This document shows positions 52,497-62,966 of a stretch of 64,000 nt of DNA, piece after piece (the first letter of the stretch is position 1; every line of letters starts with the position of its first letter). The notes under the pieces are model-generated. The model had not been told where the DNA came from and ran no database searches. It saw only the letters and a program-made list of their open reading frames with translations. The stretch is from Thermoanaerobaculia bacterium (GTDB lineage: Bacteria; Acidobacteriota; Thermoanaerobaculia; UBA5066; Gp7-AA6): contig DASWCZ010000023.1 in the NCBI GenBank assembly GCA_036395755.1, positions 7,825-71,824 on the forward strand, given 5' to 3'. Made by a program: the position numbers and the translations under genes.

Positions 52497-53264
52497 ATGC
52501 GTTCACGTCTTTGTTCCATCGTCTCTGTTCTCCTTCTCTCACTGACCGCCGCCGCAGCCACCGCCGCCGACGCGAAGACGGCGACGCCTCCGTGGAAAGT
52601 CTCCGGCCAGCTCGAGGAGGCGTGTTCCTGTGACGCGGCCTGCCCGTGCTGGTTCGATTCGAAACCGACGAGGATGAACTGCAGCGGCGGCTTCGCGCTC
52701 TTCATCGACAAGGGCAAGTACGGGGACGTGCCGCTCGACGGTCTCGCCGTCGCTCTCATCGGGCAGAACCCCGATGGAACGACGATGATGGGCTCGATCG
52801 GCAACTGGAACTTCGCCTACGTGTACGTCGACGAGAAGGCGAGCCCCGAGCAGCGCAAAGCGCTCGAGGAGATCGCCAAAGCCACCTCACCCCCCATGGC
52901 GCCGCCCGATCGGACGAAGATCCGCTACATCCCGATCACGCGGCGAGTCGACGGATCGGAGCACGTCGTCACCCTCGGCCCTTACGGGAGCTTCTCGGGC
53001 CACCTCGTCGACGGAGGCCTGGGCGGCCCGTCCAAGATCGTCAACTCGACGGGCGCCGACCCGATTCGCAAGGAGTACATGCAGGGCCGCACGACCCGCC
53101 AGACCTACAACGACGCGGGCCAGAACTGGGACTGGTCGAACAGCAACTACATGTTCACGACGTTCGACGTGACGAGCGAGGACTACGCGAAGTTCGCGCA
53201 GGCCATGACCCAGAAGATGCAGGAAAAGGCGCCACCACCGAAGACTGACAAGAAGTCGAAGTAG
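52497..53264 (+). CDS. Secreted DUF1326-family protein with a CxC-x3-CPC motif
   Basis: The RBS AGGAGGA precedes the ATG. Signal peptide MRSRLCSIVSVLLLSLTAAAATAADA. GQLEEACSCDAACPCWF is the hallmark of DUF1326. Confidence 0.6.
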   Translation: MRSRLCSIVSVLLLSLTAAAATAADAKTATPPWKVSGQLEEACSCDAACPCWFDSKPTRMNCSGGFALFIDKGKYGDVPLDGLAVALIGQNPDGTTMMGSIGNWNFAYVYVDEKASPEQRKALEEIAKATSPPMAPPDRTKIRYIPITRRVDGSEHVVTLGPYGSFSGHLVDGGLGGPSKIVNSTGADPIRKEYMQGRTTRQTYNDAGQNWDWSNSNYMFTTFDVTSEDYAKFAQAMTQKMQEKAPPPKTDKKSK

Positions 53265-53274
53265 CCCCGCGGCG

Positions 53275-53913
53275 TTGGGACTGACGCAGCCGGTCACGTT
53301 CGCGACCGACTGCGCGCTCGGCCTCGCGGCGCTCGTCGGTGCGTTCTTCCTCGCGCGGGACTGTCGCGGTCCGGGAAGGCTGCCGGTCCGCTTGTGGGCG
53401 GTTGGTTTTCTCGCGCTCGGCGCCGCGGCGTTTCTCGGCGCAACGTGGCACGGCTTTTCGGTGCACTTGGCCGCGCCTTCCGCGAAGCTGGTCTGGAAGG
53501 CAACGCTCGCGGGAACGGGATGCGCAAGCTTCCTCCTCGTGGCCGGGGCGAGCTTCGGATCGCTCGCGCGTCGGGCAGCGATCGGTGTCACGGCCGCCGC
53601 GGCGGCGAAGCTCGGCGTCTTTCTTTTCTGGGCCGCCTCTCACGACGAGTTCGATGGAGTGATCCTCGACTCAGCCGCGGCTATGGCGGCGATTCTCATC
53701 CTGCAGGGAATGGCCTGGACCCGGCGGCGGGCCCGGAGCGCCCCATGGATCGCGGCCGGGATTCTGCTCTCCTTCGGGGCGGCGGCCGTCGAGGCGCTCG
53801 GCTTTTCTCCCGGCAAGCAGTTCTCGCACGACGACCTGTACCACGTCATCCAGATAGGGGCTCTCTACCTCCTCTACCGCGGCGGCGGCCTTCTCGAGAC
53901 CCGACCGTCCTGA
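53275..53913 (+). CDS. Integral membrane protein (about 6 TM), possibly the DUF2182-type partner of DUF1326
   Basis: It starts 11 nt after the DUF1326 stop. It has multiple hydrophobic helices and conserved His residues (ATWHGFSVH, SHDDLYHVIQ). The family assignment is inference from the known DUF1326/DUF2182 gene pairing. Confidence 0.4.
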   Translation: MGLTQPVTFATDCALGLAALVGAFFLARDCRGPGRLPVRLWAVGFLALGAAAFLGATWHGFSVHLAAPSAKLVWKATLAGTGCASFLLVAGASFGSLARRAAIGVTAAAAAKLGVFLFWAASHDEFDGVILDSAAAMAAILILQGMAWTRRRARSAPWIAAGILLSFGAAAVEALGFSPGKQFSHDDLYHVIQIGALYLLYRGGGLLETRPS

Positions 53914-54059
53914 GGCCTTCCGGTGGTGCATTTTTTGCATCGAAAGCGCCGATTGACCTGAATCCACACGGATGAGACCCGGACCTGCTGACGCCTCATA
54001 AGGCCGCGATCACCCGCGAGTTCTCGAGGTTCGTTCGCCGCACTCGAAAAGGAAACGGC

Positions 54060-57000
54060 ATGAAGACCAATTCGGTGGCGGGTGGCGCTGCCTCCCGCAA
54101 CAACGGGCCGGTTCGCCGGCACCTCCTGAAGAAGCTGAAGCGGGCGGAAGTCGGCGGCTCGCTCGACCGCCGGCAGCTCCTCGCGGCGCTCCAGGGTTTC
54201 AAGCGCGGCTCCTTCGACGTGAGGCTCCCGGAGGACTGGATCGGGCTCGACGGCAAGATCGCCGATGCCTTTAACGACGTCGTCGCCCGCAATCAACGGA
54301 TGAGCCGTGAGCTCAAGCGGCTCCGGCGCGTCGTCGGCCAGGAAGGCAGGATCGCCGAGCGCGCGGACATCGGGGACGTCGAGGGCTCCTGGGCGGACTC
54401 TGTCCACTGCGTCAACGCGCTCATCGGCGACCTCGTCCATCCCACGAGGGAGACGGCGCGCGTCATCGGCGCCGTCGCGAAGGGCGACCTTTCGCAGACG
54501 ATGGCGCTCGAAGTCAACGGCCGGGCGCTCGAGGGGGAGTTCCTGCGCACCGCGAAGACCGTCAATACGATGGTCAACCAGCTTTCCTCTTTCGCCTCGG
54601 AAGTCACGCGCGTCGCCCGCGAGGTCGGCACGGAAGGCAAGCTTGGCGGTCAGGCCAAGGTCAAAGGCGTGGCCGGGACCTGGAAAGACCTGACCGAGAA
54701 CGTGAACCTGATGGCTGGCAACCTGACCGCGCAGGTCCGCAACATCGCGGCGGTCACGACCGCGGTCGCGAACGGAGATCTGGCGAAGAAGATCACGGTC
54801 GACGTCAAGGGTGAATTCCTGGAGCTCAAGGCGACGATCAACACGATGGTCGACCAGCTCCGCTCCTTCGCGGCCGAGGTCACACGTGTCGCCCGCGAGG
54901 TCGGCACCGAAGGCAAGCTCGGTGGCCAGGCGAAGGTGGAAGGAGTCGCCGGGACCTGGAAGGACCTGACAGACAACGTCAACTTCATGGCGAGCAACCT
55001 GACCGGCCAGGTGCGCAACATCGCGGACGTCACCAAGGCGGTCGCCAATGGGGACCTCTCCACCAAGGTCACGGTCGACGTCCGCGGCGAGATCCTGGAG
55101 CTGAAGAACACGGTCAACACGATGGTCGACCAGCTTTCGTCGTTTGCCGCCGAAGTCACGCGCGTCGCACGCGAGGTCGGCACGGAAGGCAAGCTCGGCG
55201 GTCAGGCCGAGGTCGAAGGCGTTTCGGGGACCTGGAAGGACCTGACCGACAGCGTCAACCTCATGGCGGGCAACTTGACCGCCCAAGTGCGCAACATCGC
55301 CGCGGTGACGACGGCCGTCGCCACGGGAGACCTGTCGAAGAAAATCACGGTCGACGTCAAGGGCGAGATCCTGGAGCTGAAGGACACGATCAACACGATG
55401 GTCGACCAGCTCCGATCCTTCGCGTCGGAGGTCACGCGCGTCGCCCGCGAGGTCGGCACCGAAGGAAAGCTCGGCGGCCAGGCCCGCGTCGAAGGCGTCT
55501 CGGGAACCTGGAAGGACCTGACCGACAACGTCAACTTCATGGCGGGCAACCTCACGTCTCAGGTGAGAAATATCGCGGACGTCACCAAGGCGGTCGCCAA
55601 CGGCGACCTCTCGCGAAAGATCACGGTCGGCGTCCGCGGCGAGATCCTGGAGCTGAAGAACACGGTCAACACGATGGTCGACCAGCTCTCGTCGTTTGCC
55701 GCCGAAGTCACCCGCGTCGCGCGCGAGGTCGGCACGGAAGGCAAGCTCGGCGGCCAGGCGAAGGTCAAGGGCGTCGGCGGGACCTGGAAAGACCTGACCG
55801 ACAACGTGAACTCGATGGCCGGCAACCTGACGAGCCAGGTCCGCGGGATCGCGAAGGTCGTCACTGCGGTCGCCAACGGCGACCTGAAGCGCAAGCTGAC
55901 GCTCCAGGCCAAGGGCGAGATCGCGGCGCTTGCCGACACGATCAACGGAATGATCGACACGCTCGCGACCTTCGCGGATCAGGTCACGACCGTGGCGCGC
56001 GAGGTCGGCGTCGAAGGAAAGCTGGGCGGCCAGGCGAGCGTGCCCGGCGCGGCCGGAACCTGGAAGGATCTGACCGACAACGTCAACCAGCTCGCCGCGA
56101 ACCTGACCACCCAGGTCCGCGCGATTGCCGAGGTCGCGACCGCGGTCACGAAGGGAGACCTCACCCGCTCGATCAAGGTCGAGGCGTCGGGAGAGGTTGC
56201 ATCTCTGAAAGACAACATCAACGAGATGATCCGGAACCTCAAAGACACGACCCTGAAGAACAGCGAGCAGGACTGGCTGAAGACGAACCTCGCCAAGTTC
56301 AGCCGCATGCTGCAGGGTCAGCGGGATCTGGTCACGGTGGGACGGCTCGTTCTGTCCGAGCTCGCTCCGGTCGTCACGGCCCAGCAGGGCGTCCTCTACA
56401 CGCTCGACGGATCGCGAGAGGACCCGCAGCTCACTCTGCTCGCGAGCTACGCGTGCCGGGAGAGCTCGCTCGCTCGCACGCTGCTTCCCGGGGAGGGACT
56501 CGTCGGCGAGTGCGCGCGCGAAAAGAACAAGATCCTGCTGCGCAACGTTCCAGCGGGTTACATGGGGATCTCTTCGGGACTCGGCGCGGGAAGCCCGGCG
56601 AACATCATCGTGTTGCCCGTGCTTTTCGAGGGCAAGGTCAAGGGGGTCCTCGAGCTCGCGTCGTTCGAGCGGTTCTCGACGGCGCACCAGGCGCTGCTCG
56701 AGCAGCTCGCCGAGACGATCGGAATCGTGCTCAATACGATCGAAGCGAATACGCGCACGGAGGACCTCCTCAAGCAGTCCCAGTCTCTGGCGGGAGAACT
56801 CCAGAGCCAGCAGGAGGAGCTTCGTCAGACCAACCAGCAGCTCGAAGAGAAAGCGGCTCTTCTCGCCGAGCGCAACGTCGAGGTCGAGCGCAAGAACCAG
56901 GAGGTCGAGCAGGCGCGGGTCGCGCTCGAGGAGAAGGCGAAGCAGCTGGCGCTCACGTCGAAGTACAAGTCCGAGTTCCTGGCCAACATGTCCCACGAGC

Positions 57001-59006
57001 TGCGGACGCCGCTGAACAGCCTCCTGATCCTCTCCGACCAGCTTTCACGCAATCCCGACAGCAACCTGACGGGCAAGCAGACCGAGTTCGCGAAGACGAT
57101 CCATGCCTCCGGAAAGGACCTCCTGAACCTGATCACCGACATCCTCGATCTCTCGAAGATCGAGTCGGGCACGGTCGTCGTCGACGTCGGCGAGCTCCGT
57201 TTCCCCGACCTCGTCGACTACGTGGAGCGCACGTTCCGCCACGTCGCCGAGGTGAAGGCGCTCGACTTTGAGATCGAGATCGGTCCCGGAATCCCGCGGT
57301 CGATCTTCACCGATTCGAAGAGGCTCCAGCAGGTCATCAAGAACCTCCTCTCGAACGCGTTCAAGTTCACGGAGAGAGGCCGCGTCTTGCTCCGCCTCGA
57401 CACGGCCGCCGCCGGCTGGGGTCCGGAGATCGAGACCTTGAACCGCGCCCGATCCGTGATCGCGTTCTCGGTGACCGACACCGGCATCGGCATCCCCGCC
57501 GAGAAGCAGCAGATCATCTTCGAAGCGTTTCAGCAGGCGGACGGCTCGACGAGCCGCAAGTACGGCGGGACCGGGCTCGGTCTCGCGATCAGTCGCGAGA
57601 TCGCCCGGATCCTTGGCGGCGAGATCCGTCTGACGAGCGCGCCCCGCGAGGGGAGCACCTTCACGCTCTATCTCCCCCGGGTCTACGCCGTGCCCAGGAG
57701 TGCGCGCGCCGCCATGGAGACGGAAGAGATCGTGTCGGTCATGACGGATGTCGATGCGGTGCGTCCGGCGGTCGAGCCGATCGTCGAATCGGGCGAGGTC
57801 GCGGACGACCGCTCGGAGATCGGCGGGGAGGACCGGGTCGTCCTCCTGATCGACAACGACGAGAACTTCGCCCGATTCCTTCTCGACGTCGCGCACGAGC
57901 ACGGTTTCAAAGGCCTGATCGCCTCGAACGGCGCGGAAGGAATCGCCCTCGCGCACCAGTTCAAAGTCGACGCGATCACTCTCGACATCCAGCTCCCCGT
58001 CATCGACGGATGGCGGGTGCTCGAGCGGCTGAAGGGCGACTTCGCGACCCGGCACGTTCCCGTTTTCGTCATCACGACGGAAGAGGAAACCTCGCGCGGG
58101 CTCCTGCTCGGGGCCATGGGGGCGCTGAACAAGCCGATCAAGACGAAGGAGGCGCTCGACGAGGTCTTCGCCGGCCTGCGCGGTTTCCTCGACCGCCACA
58201 CGCGCGACCTCTTCGTCGTGGCGCGTGAAGGCTCCGAGACGTGCGCGATCGCCGAGGTCGCCGGCAATGGCTCCGTTCGAAGAGTGGTCGTGTCGAACGG
58301 TCTGGAAGGCTTGGGCGCGCTCGACGGGAGGACGTTCGACTGCGTTGTCATCGAACCGCTTCCCGGCGACGTGGAGAGCTTCGAAACGACCGCCGAGATC
58401 CTCCGGCAATGCTCGGCTCGCCGAACTCCGGCGATTCTCTACACTCCGCGGCCGCTCTCGGAACACACGGAGCGCGAGCTGCAGAGGATCTCGCACGGCG
58501 CGATCGTCAAAACCGTGCGCTCGCCCGAGCGTCTCCTCGACCAGATCTCGCTCTTCCTCCACTCCCCGGTCGCCGAGCTCCCGCTCGATAAGCGCAAGGC
58601 GCTCGAGGCGCTCTACTCCACCGATGCCGTCCTGGCGGGCAAGAAGGTTCTCTTGGTCGACGACGACATCCGGAACATCTTCGCGATGACGAGTGTGCTC
58701 GAGAGACAGAACATGCACGTGTTCTCGGCCGAGACCGGCAAGGAAGCCATCCAGAAGCTCGAAAGCACGGACGGTATCGACATCGTCCTGATGGATCTGA
58801 TGATGCCGGACATGGACGGCTTCGACACGATGCGGGAGATCCGGAAGAAGGAGCGCTTCCGCTCGCTGCCGATCATCGCGGTCACCGCGAAGGCGATGAA
58901 AGGGGACCGGGAGAAGACCTTGCAGGCCGGAGCGTGGGATTACCTCGCGAAGCCGGTCGACACCGACCAGATGCTCTCCGTGCTCCGGGCGTGGCTCTAT
59001 CGGTGA
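54060..59006 (+). CDS. Cytoplasmic hybrid sensor histidine kinase (1648 aa): seven 92-aa HAMP repeats, GAF, coiled coil, HisKA, HATPase_c, and two receiver domains flanking a third receiver-like, apparently degenerate, module
   Basis: There is no TM segment. It has seven GDL-containing HAMP repeats (residues about 120–765) and GAF ([17 protein letters not shown]). The kinase boxes are H-box [11 protein letters not shown] box [11 protein letters not shown]1 DTGIGIP and G2 [10 protein letters not shown]. Receiver 1 contains VLLIDND...[10 protein letters not shown]. The C-terminal receiver contains KVLLVDDD...[12 protein letters not shown]...LAKP. Confidence 0.85.
54420..56290 (+). repeat. 276-bp tandem DNA repeat array (about 6.8 units) encoding the poly-HAMP module
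   Basis: Near-identical blocks recur with a 276-nt period. For example, CTTTCGTCGTTTGCCGCCGAAGTCACGCGCGTCGC occurs at about 55135 and 55687. The consensus unit is [92 protein letters not shown]. Minus-strand ORFs at 54293–55960 are repeat artefacts. Confidence 0.8.
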
Positions 59007-61546
59007 TGACCGCTCCCGACGACCCGGTCAACATCCTGGCGGTCGACGACAGCGCCGACAAGTTGCTGGCGCTGTCGGCCCTCCTCTCCGAACTGGGCCA
59101 GAACGTGATCACGGCCACGTCCGGCCGGGAAGCCCTCCGCCACCTCCTCCGCCAGGAGTTCGCGGTGGTTCTCCTCGACGTCAACATGCCCGGAATGGAC
59201 GGCTTCGAGACCGCCGCGCTGATGCGGCAGAGGCAGAAGTCCGAGCACACTCCGATCATCTTCATCACCGCGTACGGCGATGAAACCCACGCGACGCGGG
59301 GCTATTCACTCGGGGCGGTGGACTACATCCTGGCCCCCGTCGAGCCGGAGGTGTTGCGCACGAAGGTCGGAGTCTTCGTGGAGCTCTTCCGGAAGACGGC
59401 CCAGATCCGACGCCAGGCCGAGTCTCTCGAGCAGAGGGCGCGGCAGCTCCAGCGGTTGACCGAGGCCTCACTCGCGATCAACTCCGCTCTGTCCCCCGAC
59501 CGGATGCTGCAGGTCGTCGCCGACCTGGCCCGGGACATCCTCGGCGCCCACCAGGCAGTCGCGCTCGCCGCCGCGGAACAGAAGTGGTCGGAGGTCAAGA
59601 GTGCGGTGTCTCTGTCGCCGACCTGCGCCTCGGATGGAGAGCGGCGGGTGCTGCGCGATCGGGACGCGCTCGTTTCGCTGCTCTCGTGGATGAGTCGCGC
59701 GGTCCGTCTCCCGCGCCGGCAGACCGAGCGGCCGTCGGAGTGGTCCCAGTTTTTCGACGGCGGTCTGCCGGTGGAGGTCGGCTGGCTCGCCGCGCCGCTG
59801 ACGGGCCGGGACGGCCGGAACATGGGCCTGCTGCACCTCCTCGAAAAGCTGGACGGCGACTTCACCGAGGAGGACGAGGCCGTCGTCACGCAGCTCGCCC
59901 AGATGAGCTCGATCGCAATCGAGAACACGTTGAACGCCGAGGCTCGAGAGGCCAACCGGATCAAAGACGAATTTCTGACGACGCTCTCCCACGAGCTTCG
60001 GACGCCGCTGACCGCGATACTCGGCTGGGCCCGCGCCTTGCGGTCCGGAGTTTCCGACGGCCCGCGGACGGCGCGGGGCCTCGAGGTCATCGAGCGCAAC
60101 GTGCTCGCGCAGGCGAAACTGATCGACGACCTCCTGGACGTTTCACGGATCATCACCGGAAAGCTCCGGCTCGCGCTCCGCGCGACCAACCTCGCCTCCG
60201 TCATCGAGGCGGCGCTCGACTCCATGAGGCCAGCCGCCGAGGCAAAGGGAATCGAGATCCTGTTTCAACGGGACGCGACGGCCGGCGATTACGAGCTGAT
60301 CGCGGACCCCGACCGGCTCCAACAGGTCGTCTGGAACCTGATCTCCAACGCGATCAAGTTCACACCGCCGCGCGGAAGGGTCGAAGTGAATCTGACCCGG
60401 CCCGATTCGCAGTTCGAGATCCGGGTGACGGACACCGGGAAAGGGATCCCCGCCGAATTCTTGCCCTCGGTTTTCGACCGCTTTCAACAGGCCGACAGCT
60501 CGACGACCCGCGCGCACGGCGGTCTCGGCATCGGTCTCGCCATCGTGCGGCATTTAGTCGAGCTCCACGGCGGTTCGGTCGCAGCGTCGAGCGACGGAGA
60601 CGGTCGGGGAGCCTCCTTCTGCGTCCGGCTGCCCGCCGTCGCGCTCGGCGTCACGGCACTCGACCGGGAGCGGGCTTCATCCGGGGCGAGGCCGTTTGCT
60701 CCCGCCCCCGCCGACCGGGACCTGACCGGCGTGCGCGTGCTCTTGGTCGAGGACGAGCCGGACGGGAGGGAGCTGCTCGCCGAAATCCTGAGAAGCGCAG
60801 GGGGAGAAATCCACGCCGTCGGCTCCGCGGGCGAGGCCTACGAGGCCGTGCGGAGCTTTCGGCCGCACGTGCTCGTGAGCGACATCGCGATGGCGCGGGA
60901 GGACGGCTACTCGCTCATCCGCCGCCTGCGGCGGCTTCCTGCCGAAGACGGCGGCCGCATTCCCGCGGTGGCGCTCTCAGCATACGCGCGCGAGGACGAT
61001 CGGATCCGCTCGCTCGCGGCCGGATTTCAGCAGCACATCGCGAAGCCGCTCGATCCGGAGGAGCTCGTCGGCGCGGTGAACCGGCTCGCTTCCCGAGGAA
61101 ACCCGGGGCGTGATCCTGCCCCCCTCCCGGCGCCGGCATCCCGGGTCCTCGTCGTGGAAGACGACAGCGACTCGCGCGAAGGCCTGCGGCATCTGCTCGA
61201 GATCTGGGGGCACGACGTCGAAGTCGCGGAGAACGGCAAAACGGGCATCGAGAAGGCGATCGAGCGACGCCCGGACATCGCTCTGATCGACGTGGGACTC
61301 CCCGAGATGGACGGCTACGCGGTCGCCTCCCGGCTCCGCGAGGCCCTCGGCGACGGCGGGATCTTCCTGATCGCCCTGACGGGTTACGCCGAGCCGGAAG
61401 ACCGGCGTCGGGCTTTCGAGTCCGGCTTCCACGCACACCTGGCCAAGCCGATCAACTATTCACGTCTCTCGTCCCTCCTCTCCGAGGGACAGGGGCGCCG
61501 CTCGGCCGCGGCCGGCCGCGACGCCGAGCGAAACACCGCGGGATAG
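59006..61546 (+). CDS. Hybrid histidine kinase: N-terminal receiver, GAF, HisKA, HATPase_c, and two C-terminal receiver domains
   Basis: The ATG at 59006 shares one nucleotide with the upstream stop (TGATG). Receiver 1 contains ILAVDDSADK...LLDVNMPGMDGF. The H-box is [14 protein letters not shown], followed by NLISNAIKFT, DTGKGIP and GGLGIGLAIV. Receiver 2 contains VLLVEDEPD and receiver 3 contains VLVVEDDSD...IDVGLPEMDGY. Confidence 0.85.
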   Translation: MTAPDDPVNILAVDDSADKLLALSALLSELGQNVITATSGREALRHLLRQEFAVVLLDVNMPGMDGFETAALMRQRQKSEHTPIIFITAYGDETHATRGYSLGAVDYILAPVEPEVLRTKVGVFVELFRKTAQIRRQAESLEQRARQLQRLTEASLAINSALSPDRMLQVVADLARDILGAHQAVALAAAEQKWSEVKSAVSLSPTCASDGERRVLRDRDALVSLLSWMSRAVRLPRRQTERPSEWSQFFDGGLPVEVGWLAAPLTGRDGRNMGLLHLLEKLDGDFTEEDEAVVTQLAQMSSIAIENTLNAEAREANRIKDEFLTTLSHELRTPLTAILGWARALRSGVSDGPRTARGLEVIERNVLAQAKLIDDLLDVSRIITGKLRLALRATNLASVIEAALDSMRPAAEAKGIEILFQRDATAGDYELIADPDRLQQVVWNLISNAIKFTPPRGRVEVNLTRPDSQFEIRVTDTGKGIPAEFLPSVFDRFQQADSSTTRAHGGLGIGLAIVRHLVELHGGSVAASSDGDGRGASFCVRLPAVALGVTALDRERASSGARPFAPAPADRDLTGVRVLLVEDEPDGRELLAEILRSAGGEIHAVGSAGEAYEAVRSFRPHVLVSDIAMAREDGYSLIRRLRRLPAEDGGRIPAVALSAYAREDDRIRSLAAGFQQHIAKPLDPEELVGAVNRLASRGNPGRDPAPLPAPASRVLVVEDDSDSREGLRHLLEIWGHDVEVAENGKTGIEKAIERRPDIALIDVGLPEMDGYAVASRLREALGDGGIFLIALTGYAEPEDRRRAFESGFHAHLAKPINYSRLSSLLSEGQGRRSAAAGRDAERNTAG

Positions 61547-61547
61547 G

Positions 61548-61958
61548 CTACGGTATGGCGGGCGGGGTCACCGCGGGCGTCGGACTCGCCGGATGCGTCT
61601 TCTCGTGCAGCTGGAGACGCGCGAGCAGCCAGTCTCGAAGCGGCTCTCGATGTCCTTCGCGCGTGCGAACTTCATAGAGCTTGCCGCTCTCCTCCGACTT
61701 CGAAGCCACTCCCAGAACGAATTCCATCGCGGTCTGGACTCGCTTCCCGGCAAAGCGCAACTTCATGGAGAGGTGCGAGGCGGCCCGCTTACCCGAGTAT
61801 TCGGCGCCATTTCGGATGAAGACTTCGTCGGACTTCTTCACCTCTCCGATCAAGAAATCGATCTTTGTTTGCTCCTCGGGCGGACGGACGGCGGCGGCAA
61901 GCGCCGGATGCGCCAGAGCGAGAGCGAGGAGAGGCACGGCAGCCGGTTTACGAACCAC
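61548..61958 (-). CDS. Hypothetical secreted/periplasmic protein
   Basis: Signal peptide MVRKPAAVPLLALALAHPALAAAV. The mature part contains KIDFLIGEVKKSDEVFIRNGAEYSGKRAASHLSMKLRF. It is convergent with the second kinase, with stops 2 nt apart. It is downstream of, and overlapping, the orphan receiver gene. Confidence 0.45.
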   Translation of the reverse strand: MVRKPAAVPLLALALAHPALAAAVRPPEEQTKIDFLIGEVKKSDEVFIRNGAEYSGKRAASHLSMKLRFAGKRVQTAMEFVLGVASKSEESGKLYEVRTREGHREPLRDWLLARLQLHEKTHPASPTPAVTPPAIP

Positions 61959-62313
61959 AGTAATCCTTGACCAGCTCGAGAAGCGCGTCCGGACGGATCG
62001 GTTTTTTCAGGTAATCGGCGTGGAGGGTCCTCGCCTTCTCGATCGCGCGTCCGTCCGCGCTCATGATCACGACCGGGATCGACGAGAGGTCCGGATCGCG
62101 AAGCTGCTCGGTTCGGAACTCCCAGCCGTTCATGATCGGCATCATGAGGTCGAGCAGGATCACGCAGGGCCTCTCGGTGCGGGCGCGCTCGAGCGCGACC
62201 TCACCGTTCTCGGCCGGCCAGGACGTAAATCCGGCTTCCGTGAGGACTGCGCAGATGCTCTCTCGCAGATTCATGTCGTCTTCGACTACGAGGACTCGCG
62301 GAGTGATTCCCAT
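61948..62313 (-). CDS. Stand-alone response-regulator receiver domain protein
   Basis: The 121-aa protein has VLVVEDD...ILLDLMMPIMNGWEF...VVIMSADG...LKKP. It is a CheY-like single-domain receiver. Confidence 0.8.
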   Translation of the reverse strand: MGITPRVLVVEDDMNLRESICAVLTEAGFTSWPAENGEVALERARTERPCVILLDLMMPIMNGWEFRTEQLRDPDLSSIPVVIMSADGRAIEKARTLHADYLKKPIRPDALLELVKDYCGS

Positions 62314-62376
62314 GCGGAAAACCGCCGTTTTTGCAAGAACTGTGCAAACCTGCGATCCGGGCGCACGAAGGCGCCG

Positions 62377-62805
62377 TCAAAGGGCGGCCGACGTCGCCTC
62401 CCGGGAATCGAGATGGTCGCGATCGGAGCAGTAATGGGCGACGGTCTCCAGAAGCTGATGGAGCTTCACCGGCTTGCGGAGATAGGAGGCGAGGGCGAGA
62501 CGCCGGGCCTCGCGCTGCCCTTCCGAGAGGCCGGTGAAACCCACGACCGGAATGTCCGCGAGCCGCGAATCGGCCAACTGGAGCCGCCGGAACTCCGCTC
62601 CGTCCATCCCCGGCATTTTCAGGTCGAGAATGATGAGACAGGGACTCTCGCCGGCTCGAAGGAGTTCGAACGCGTGCTCCCCGTCCCGCGCAGTCAACGC
62701 GCGATAGCCCTCTTCCTCGATCACGTCGCGGAGAACCGCGAGGAGCTCGCCGTCGTCGTCGACGACGAGAACCGTTTTCCTCGGCTCGATTGTCACGGAG
62801 GACAC
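62377..62805 (-). CDS. Stand-alone response-regulator receiver domain protein
   Basis: It has TVLVVDDDGELL...IILDLKMPGMDGAEF...VVGFTG...LRKP. The tracked GTG start at 62865 lies only 25 nt from the tRNA-Lys 3' end. I prefer an internal GTG near 62805 or 62796. The start is uncertain. Confidence 0.7.
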   Translation of the reverse strand: MSSVTIEPRKTVLVVDDDGELLAVLRDVIEEEGYRALTARDGEHAFELLRAGESPCLIILDLKMPGMDGAEFRRLQLADSRLADIPVVGFTGLSEGQREARRLALASYLRKPVKLHQLLETVAHYCSDRDHLDSREATSAAL

Positions 62806-62890
62806 TCTCTGAATTGTATCTCTGAGAAGGTCGAGGTCGCGGGGACAGGTCCTGCGGACCTGCACCCGCCACCGAATTACGGGGATGGAT

Positions 62891-62966
62891 TGGTGAGCCG
62901 CGAAGGACTCGAACCTTCAACCTAGAGATTAAGAGTCTCTTGCTCTACCAATTGAGCTAGCGGCCC
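62891..62966 (-). tRNA. tRNA-Lys, anticodon CTT
   Basis: The reverse complement is GGGCCGCTAGCTCAATTGGTAGAGCAAGAGACTCTTAATCTCTAGGTTGAAGGTTCGAGTCCTTCGCGGCTCACCA. It folds as a cloverleaf with acceptor GGGCCGC/GCGGCTC and anticodon loop CTCTTAA (CUU). The T-arm is GAAGG-TTCGAGT-CCTTC, and CCA is encoded. Confidence 0.85.

Follow-up and report, generated by a model that had tools for sequence, protein, structure and literature searches.

What does a long tandem repeat encode when it lies inside the gene of a soluble bacterial kinase, and what keeps its units alike? We asked this of a 64,000-nt stretch of DNA from a Thermoanaerobaculia bacterium (contig DASWCZ010000023.1 of assembly GCA_036395755.1, positions 7,825 to 71,824; hereafter the window), in which a 276-bp period is the only large tandem repeat (Tandem Repeats Finder: 54562-56161, 5.8 copies, 78% matches, 0 indels, score 1696). 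The repeat lies within a plus-strand open reading frame (ORF) of 1648 amino acids (aa), 54060-59006, which the ORF list and its translation give as a single frame open throughout, and the encoded protein matches exactly the public NCBI record HEX9303318.1, ‘HAMP domain-containing protein [Thermoanaerobaculia bacterium]’. The original prediction, made from the sequence alone, had placed here a poly-HAMP module in the style of the fungal kinases Nik1/Os-1 within a soluble bacterial hybrid kinase. Our analysis bears this out: the product of the locus is very probably a soluble, dimeric hybrid histidine kinase that belongs to the kinase-associated poly-HAMP family, and the kinase is an ordinary short-array member of a bacterial family that is already known and structurally characterised.

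The Pfam search that had been proposed as a check recognised the array far above the cutoffs. HAMP (PF00672) matched in six stretches (217 bits, E 2e-65) and HAMP_2 (PF18947) in seven (198 bits, E 2e-59), the two models alternating along the kinase, and the units are thus paired HAMP domains as proposed. No transmembrane segment was predicted in the kinase by a crude hydropathy scan, in agreement with the prediction; the highest 19-residue Kyte-Doolittle value (1.49) falls within the GAF domain and no scanned segment exceeds 1.6. A separate N-terminal sensor domain is absent, just 32 residues standing ahead of HAMP1. Behind the array, Pfam confirmed the expected order of GAF, HisKA, HATPase and receiver domains (Table 1), and the catalytic motifs are intact, namely the H-box SHELRTP with His979 and the N, G1 and G2 boxes, as are the Asp and Lys motifs of the receivers. 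The receiver-like region at about aa 1410-1496, with 29% conservation among relatives, is probably a degenerate pseudo-receiver at best, judging from its sequence.

The evidence that carries the structural assignment is a match to a crystallised relative. Searched by sequence with aa 1-757, the PDB returned two entries, 9TRK (E 4e-121) and 9TRJ (E 4e-72), both labelled ‘histidine kinase, Gcn4p’, which are the 6-HAMP and 4-HAMP crystal structures of AskA (MXAN_0712) from Myxococcus xanthus (Protein Science 2026, PMC13446029). Residues 30-314 of the kinase align with the AskA 6-HAMP-GCN4 construct 9TRK with 0 gaps and 199 of 285 residues identical (70%). By part, the identity to AskA is 44% over HAMP1-2 and 83% over HAMP3-6, and the AskA crystals show HAMP3-6 as HAMP four-helix bundles (PMC13446029). 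It is on this sequence match to the AskA crystal structure that the predicted HAMP bundles of the window protein rest.

The layout of the array follows that of the published family, defined as a D1 HAMP followed by repeated di-HAMP modules of the C + D2 type (PMC13446029), where C denotes a non-canonical HAMP and D1 and D2 denote canonical ones. In the window protein we read the arrangement as D1 + 7 x (C + D2), giving 15 HAMPs from aa 33 to aa 727 (54156-56240), with a divergent first pair. A gap-free repeat finder gave six in-register copies exactly 276 nt apart, and the GDL anchors stand at aa 142, 239, 331, 423, 515, 607 and 699, the spacing being exactly 92 from aa 239 on; the first interval is 97 aa instead of 92 because the connector of HAMP3 carries a 5-aa insertion. 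Read in the register of the GDL motif, the array consists of five clean units, one with the 5-aa insertion, one more divergent (62-72% DNA identity to the rest) and a final half unit. The count of seven 92-aa repeats in the original prediction therefore stands if the divergent first pair is included and becomes six regular units otherwise, and its span of 54420-56290 covers most of the array while leaving out the first two HAMPs. Each of the seven C-type HAMPs has the interface tryptophan of the GxW motif, within GSW or GTW, and the glycines at the junctions are kept, those of both G-x-W and N-G-D-L being conserved. The last two di-HAMP units are position-specific variants.

How does this protein compare with what has been described? 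Kinase-associated poly-HAMP proteins carry GAF, DHp, CA and receiver domains after the array, have no upstream input domain and conserve the junction glycines (PMC13446029), and the hallmark residues of the family are all found in the window protein, with Pro128, the 5-aa insertion, the seven GSW/GTW motifs and the junction glycines. AskA, AskB and Amb07 of Sorangium have been presented as bacterial, group-III-like poly-HAMP hybrid kinases without transmembrane segments and compared with NIK1 of Candida (Nat Commun 2020, PMC7643160). With soluble bacterial kinases of this kind in print (PMC7643160, PMC13446029), the novelty that the original prediction implied does not hold. Like AskA (UniProt Q1DEE3; PDB 9TRJ/9TRK) and its paralogue AskB (MXAN_6735), the window protein is soluble, opens with a putative D1 HAMP followed by 92-aa C-D2 pairs, and has GAF, DHp, CA and several receivers after the array; with AskA it also shares the proline kink and connector insertion of HAMP3 (a beta-hairpin in AskA), the junction glycines and the interface tryptophan. 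It differs in having 15 HAMPs, compared with 21 in AskA and 31 in AskB, and in its host, an uncultured soil member of the Thermoanaerobaculia (Acidobacteriota) without known fruiting-body development. We compare it with AskA and AskB together and do not assign it as the orthologue of one over the other.

The fungal group III kinases have been assigned to the same kinase-associated poly-HAMP type (PMC13446029), and the 92-residue period noted as common to both is confirmed, the HAMP pair of CaNik1p being 92 aa long (PMC3848655). Compared by published description, Os-1/Nik-1 of N. crassa, CaNik1p of C. albicans, DhNik1p of D. hansenii, Drk1 and TcsC resemble the window protein in being cytoplasmic hybrid kinases with no transmembrane segment, with 92-aa HAMP pairs and a receiver. 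The fungal proteins have about 4-6 HAMP pairs, their array feeds the HisKA domain without a GAF domain, and they typically carry one receiver and signal via Ypd1 (a histidine phosphotransfer, HPt, protein) to Ssk1 and the HOG pathway. The window kinase, in contrast, has a GAF domain before HisKA, two good receivers together with a degenerate one, and a bacterial host. Chemoreceptor-associated poly-HAMP arrays, which place A/B-type HAMPs with an interface phenylalanine before a methyl-accepting domain, were judged independent in origin (PMC13446029); unlike them, the window kinase has C/D HAMPs, an interface tryptophan and a kinase output instead of the methyl-accepting chemotaxis protein (MCP) domain. 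Stretches of the NCBIfam Aer2 model match the window array, and Aer2 of Pseudomonas aeruginosa (3LNR, 4I44, 4I3M) likewise has concatenated HAMPs, which alternate in conformation. Unlike the window array, however, Aer2 has five diverse HAMPs that are broken by a PAS-haem sensor and precede an MCP output, and it was classed as ‘multi-HAMP’ rather than as a repetitive poly-HAMP array (PMC13446029).

The family is large and crosses phyla. A protein search gave at least 8000 homologues at E <= 1e-50, the matches listed spanning 1871-2883 aa, and a scan of GTDB species representatives gave at least 598 loci in Verrucomicrobiota, Planctomycetota, Acidobacteriota, Pseudomonadota, Cyanobacteria, Chloroflexota, Myxococcota and others. 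Locus comparisons were made on 80 loci kept of the at least 598, a set biased to good matches to the window query and drawn from genomes other than that of the source organism. The GxWxxL motif is spaced exactly 92 aa in all 80, and arrays differ in their number of regular units, between 5 and 14 (modes at 6, 9 and 11); the window array has 6, other Thermoanaerobaculia loci (L008, L009 and L061) have 9-10, and AskA has 9 in the same count. The first three and the last two to three HAMPs are position-specific and nearly invariant, as are the last two di-HAMP units with the linker to GAF, and only the interior varies in number. In addition, 170 records of plasmids, megaplasmids or chromids carry relatives (for example, NZ_CP032341.1 of Azospirillum and NC_012529.1 of Deinococcus deserti), the close ones at ~76-80% aa identity. 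Of these 170 records, 69 are predicted to be conjugative. Plasmid carriage is a possible route for the patchy spread of the family across phyla.

Conservation along the protein is uneven, the HAMP rod varying less between phyla than the catalytic core does. Between the window protein and 75 full-length relatives, the mean identity was 83-89% for the regular di-HAMP units, a range somewhat inflated for interior units by best-of-several-units matching, and 88% for the last pair, which as a position-specific unit is unaffected. It was 80% for the linker to GAF, 78% for DHp, 69% for CA, 55% for GAF, 43-61% for the receivers and 44-46% for HAMP1-2. This unevenness argues for selection on the rod and not for a recent transfer of the whole gene. 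When 603 interior units from 81 arrays were pooled, 62 of the 92 unit columns were conserved at 95% or more, and 24 of these 62 near-invariant columns are polar or charged. A term search of the main text of PMC13446029 found no discussion of position-specific last units or of this conservation ranking.

What might such a rod do? By analogy with the AskA crystals and the published model, two chains would wind into one unbroken, supercoiled rod of four helices, the output helix of every HAMP leading straight into the input helix of the one that follows. The alternating canonical and non-canonical HAMPs would reverse the sense of axial helix rotation, so that each pair could hand on a rotational state. 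The conformational state would then be relayed, or set collectively, along the rod to the last pair and, through the linker, to the GAF-DHp region, where it might switch between autophosphorylation at His979 and phosphatase activity. From the gene context and the Ask system of M. xanthus, phosphoryl groups would be expected to pass to the kinase's own receivers, and may be exchanged with the translationally coupled hybrid kinase downstream and possibly with two nearby regulators (see below). The likeliest class of input would be a cytoplasmic cue acting on the rod or the GAF domain, either physico-chemical or in the form of a small molecule or partner.

The alternative that survives best, although we consider it unlikely, is that the rod is not mainly a relay and instead serves as a binding platform for DNA or partners, or is itself the sensor surface, the kinase reporting its occupancy or modification. 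In its favour, no part of the protein is better conserved between phyla than the regular di-HAMP units (83-89%, compared with 78% for DHp), polar or charged residues occupy 24 of the 62 near-invariant columns, binding to PmrpC DNA, MrpC and FruA in vitro has been reported for AskA and AskB, and ligand recognition or post-translational modification of HAMPs has been raised in PMC13446029. On the other hand, the polar residues may be constrained by packing between domains and by alternative rotated packing states, the known partners or ligands are confined to Myxococcus, and the Pfam rows over the HAMPs that resemble helix-turn-helix (HTH) domains look artefactual. A platform or sensor surface would moreover be compatible with signal relay and not exclusive of it. 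The Pfam rows SpoIIID, HTH_6 and PseudoU_synth_1 have no stretch that is significant singly and overlap the HAMP helices, and we rejected them as DNA-binding domains of the array; the partial SpoIIID and RpiR-HTH matches look like artefacts summed over the repeats. In AskA and AskB, a match of the SpoIIID/HTH type had earlier been interpreted as possibly a domain that binds DNA (PMC7643160).

Only tentatively, and against the odds as we see them, we raise the idea that the rod is the conserved business end of a widespread two-kinase cytoplasmic sensing module in bacteria. The strong conservation of its interior units, its fixed end HAMPs and the receiver-first hybrid kinase that in most cases comes next leave room for it. 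If this were true, a shared ligand, modification or partner would read the rod surface, the same surface as in the fungal kinases that are fungicide targets. The family, the 92-aa di-HAMP period, the kinship to fungal group III kinases, the gain and loss of modules and the crystal structures are all already published, and since the exact protein is in public databases, the locus matters little as a discovery. Its value is that of a compact example, with 15 HAMPs instead of the 21 of AskA or the 31 of AskB, assembled identically four times. The stronger conservation of the rod than of the core, the position-fixed end modules and the frequent downstream partner kinase could guide mutagenesis in the AskA or Nik1 systems.

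We next consider what keeps the units alike. Several of them had been called nearly identical at the nucleotide level, which was taken to imply ongoing concerted evolution or recent expansion. The measured similarity is lower: DNA identity between units is 62-87% (mean 77%), the longest exact run common to two units is 57 nt (55079-55135 and 55631-55687, an offset of two units or 552 nt), and identity at third codon positions is 51-73%, compared with 40% expected by chance at a GC content of 0.89 at these positions. The synonymous divergence (dS, Nei-Gojobori) between units is 0.43-0.99, and the ratio of non-synonymous to synonymous divergence (dN/dS) is 0.10-0.20 among interior units. For each unit of the window, the nearest match lies in the array of another phylum (92-96% aa identity) and not among its own siblings (65-91% at best), and therefore selection, not concerted evolution, keeps the units alike. 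The relationships are also positional: the first regular unit corresponds to first units elsewhere, the penultimate to unit 8 of 9 or 12 of 13, and the last to unit 9 of 9 or 13 of 13. The interior units are 86-89% identical to the pan-family consensus of the 603 units, and the last unit fits a consensus of its own that is equally conserved. The likeness of the units is thus upheld by strong purifying selection on an old array and not by recent amplification or gene conversion; the units are alike because each has been held to the same sequence while synonymous sites diverged. With purifying selection of this strength on each unit, similarity among repeats is no evidence of concerted evolution.

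These data bear directly on the possibility that the array was recently expanded, or homogenised by ongoing gene conversion, with an unstable unit number in the lineage, a reading that is largely refuted for the window array and that we regard as improbable. It draws on the variation among relatives from 5 to 14 regular units, including 9-10 in other Thermoanaerobaculia compared with 6 here, on the units of some relatives that reach 99% DNA identity (for example, L054 of Massilia), and on the mention of intragenic amplification in the published description of the family (PMC13446029). It also draws on the most similar pairs within the window array, CD2/CD4 and CD3/CD5, and on the 57-nt run, which is longer than the ~23 nt estimated for 85% identity. 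However, the maximum identity of 87% places the window array in the lower middle of the family, dS is at least 0.43 for all pairs, every unit has its nearest relative in another phylum, the end units are positional orthologues, and the gene is essentially unchanged across four assemblies (0, 1, 0 and 0 differences). Recent amplification occurs in the family (PMC13446029) but not in the window array. The similarity of CD2/CD4 and CD3/CD5 and the 57-nt run, whose copies are 552 nt apart, suggest that a block of two units was duplicated long ago, or else that there was a short gene-conversion tract. The window units alternate between two flavours (ABABA). This pattern is absent from other arrays, which counts further against a recent expansion, and a family-wide super-period of 184 aa (two units) was rejected on the same ground, in a test on 6 discriminating positions only.

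Could the copy number be an artefact, the repeat having been collapsed or expanded by a short-read assembler? We judge this highly improbable, and the risk of assembly error that had been flagged is low. A tandem repeat of 276-bp period invites such errors, and all the assemblies that hold the gene appear to be short-read metagenomes, judged by their k141-type contig names. Yet the 4947-nt gene recurs in four independent assemblies, ENA ERZ27253196, JGI 3300012354, JGI 3300012350 (both JGI records being soil metagenomes) and NCBI GCA_009772075.1, with 0, 1, 0 and 0 differences from the window, respectively, and mis-assembly is therefore unlikely. In addition, the longest exact repeat of 57 nt is shorter than typical reads and shorter than k = 141, and since every unit is distinguishable from the rest, collapse or expansion during assembly is very unlikely. 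The first, penultimate and last units are ordered as expected from other genomes, and the frame is intact across the array.

Several results weigh against the assignment of the locus to a soluble poly-HAMP kinase that signals through its rod. HAMP1 (the putative D1 HAMP) is unrecognised by Pfam; its region is helical in the AlphaFold2 model, where it has the highest confidence, with a predicted local distance difference test score (pLDDT) of 74-90, and HAMP1-2 are just 44% identical to AskA. The AlphaFold2 model, computed for aa 1-760 as a monomer only and from a 22-sequence alignment, is poor as a whole (mean pLDDT 46, predicted template modelling score 0.27), reaching pLDDT 70-90 just for aa 40-180; HAMP bundles are dimeric. 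A Foldseek search with this model against a PDB copy that runs to April 2026 placed the Aer2 poly-HAMP crystals on top (probability 0.98 and 0.94), but with E values of 0.2 that are non-significant, and 9TRK was not among the returns. No HPt domain was found by Pfam in the neighbouring genes scanned, so the route of the phosphorelay is conjecture, and even the structure paper calls the signalling role of such arrays unclear (PMC13446029). The usable part of the model is its secondary structure, comprising 16 helices of ~30 residues with connectors of 11-17 residues between them on a 46-residue beat, and strands at aa 151-156 of the HAMP3 connector, where AskA has its hairpin. The AlphaFold check that had been proposed for four-helix HAMP bundles thus returned the helix-connector-helix pattern in a low-confidence monomer, and the bundles are not demonstrated by the model; together with the Foldseek matches, it would provide weak, consistent evidence for a HAMP fold. 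That the units form a plain coiled-coil spacer without HAMP identity finds some room in this low-confidence monomer, which does not itself show HAMP bundles, but the chance of it is practically nil, since Pfam scores of 217 and 198 bits, the 83% identity to the four-helix bundles of AskA HAMP3-6 and the helix-connector-helix pattern on a 46-aa beat stand against it, and the idea is already refuted at the level of sequence homology.

Table 1 Features of the poly-HAMP kinase gene and of its candidate partner genes in the window.
Feature	Position in the window	Strand	Basis
Soluble poly-HAMP hybrid histidine kinase gene	54060..59006	+	ORF, Pfam, exact-sequence look-up, four assemblies
HAMP1, N-terminal canonical, putative D1-type (aa 33-87)	54156..54320	+	Gap-free alignment to HAMP1 of AskA construct 9TRK
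HAMP2, divergent first non-canonical C-type (aa 88-124), GSW interface tryptophan	54321..54431	+	AskA HAMP2 alignment; HAMP_2 match aa 108-155
HAMP3, canonical D2-type (aa 125-175), Pro128 in input helix, 5-aa connector insertion	54432..54584	+	Anchor spacing, sequence
Six regular 276-bp/92-aa di-HAMP units, C-2/D2-2 to C-7/D2-7 (aa 176-727)	54585..56240	+	Repeat calls, Pfam, layout
Starts of the regular units	54585, 54861, 55137, 55413, 55689, 55965	+	Domain layout
Helical linker, last HAMP to GAF (aa 728-755)	56241..56324	+	Unbroken helix aa 712-759 in AlphaFold2 model; mean 80% identity across phyla
GAF domain (aa 756-891)	56325..56732	+	Pfam GAF_2 E 4e-17 (aa 755-891), GAF E 1.6e-08
HisKA/DHp domain (aa 970-1037), H-box SHELRTP	56967..57170	+	Pfam HisKA E 5e-18
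Phospho-acceptor His979	56994-56996	+	Motif position
HATPase_c domain (aa 1085-1207), N/G1/G2 boxes, motif GGTGLGL	57312..57680	+	Pfam E 8e-28
Receiver domain 1 (aa 1261-1367), candidate acceptor Asp1309	57840..58160	+	Pfam Response_reg 59 bits on sub-fragment
Degenerate receiver-like region (~aa 1410-1496)	58287..58547	+	Response_reg 13.3 bits, E 0.094, under cutoff
C-terminal receiver domain (aa 1530-1642), Asp1579, Lys motif AVTAKA	58647..58985	+	Best Pfam Response_reg stretch; motifs
Downstream hybrid kinase, 846 aa: REC, GAF, HisKA, HATPase, REC, REC	59006..61546	+	Gene calls, Pfam
Two single-domain response-regulator genes	61948-62313, 62377-62865	-	Pfam Response_reg E 6e-18, 3e-17

The gene directly downstream encodes a second hybrid kinase (Table 1). 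Its start codon (ATG) shares 1 nt with the stop codon (TGA) of the poly-HAMP kinase gene, and it is therefore a probable operon partner. At 43 of the 76 assessable loci, in many phyla, the poly-HAMP kinase gene is followed on its own strand, within 400 nt, by a homologous gene that begins with a receiver, and the similarity reaches through the kinase core in roughly half of those 43. In M. xanthus, askB has askC directly behind it, AskC binds both AskA and AskB, and Rec3 of AskA contacts the AskC receiver; we liken the downstream kinase to AskC by gene position and arrangement, not by comparison with the AskC sequence. The two single-domain response regulators on the opposite strand are candidate phosphorelay partners by proximity only. 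They belong to a group at 61548-62966 on the minus strand, convergent with the kinase pair, that also holds a DUF5329 gene and a tRNA-Lys(CTT).

Antisense to the HAMP array, an ORF (53874-56996, minus strand, 1040 aa) was rejected as a gene; it has no Pfam match and is a shadow ORF of the GC-rich repetitive coding sequence, which a gene finder might nevertheless call falsely. Rfam gave no structured RNA in the repeat, its only matches in the window being two tRNAs outside it. DUF1326 and DUF6962 genes (52497-53913) directly precede the kinase on the same strand, and a promoter scan of 53700-54200 found no sigma-70-like site and one weak terminator-like hairpin at 53788. Far from the kinase, at 1750-1886, two short tandem repeats stand about 50 nt apart, one of 25 nt in 1.9 copies and the other of 21 nt in 2.0 copies.

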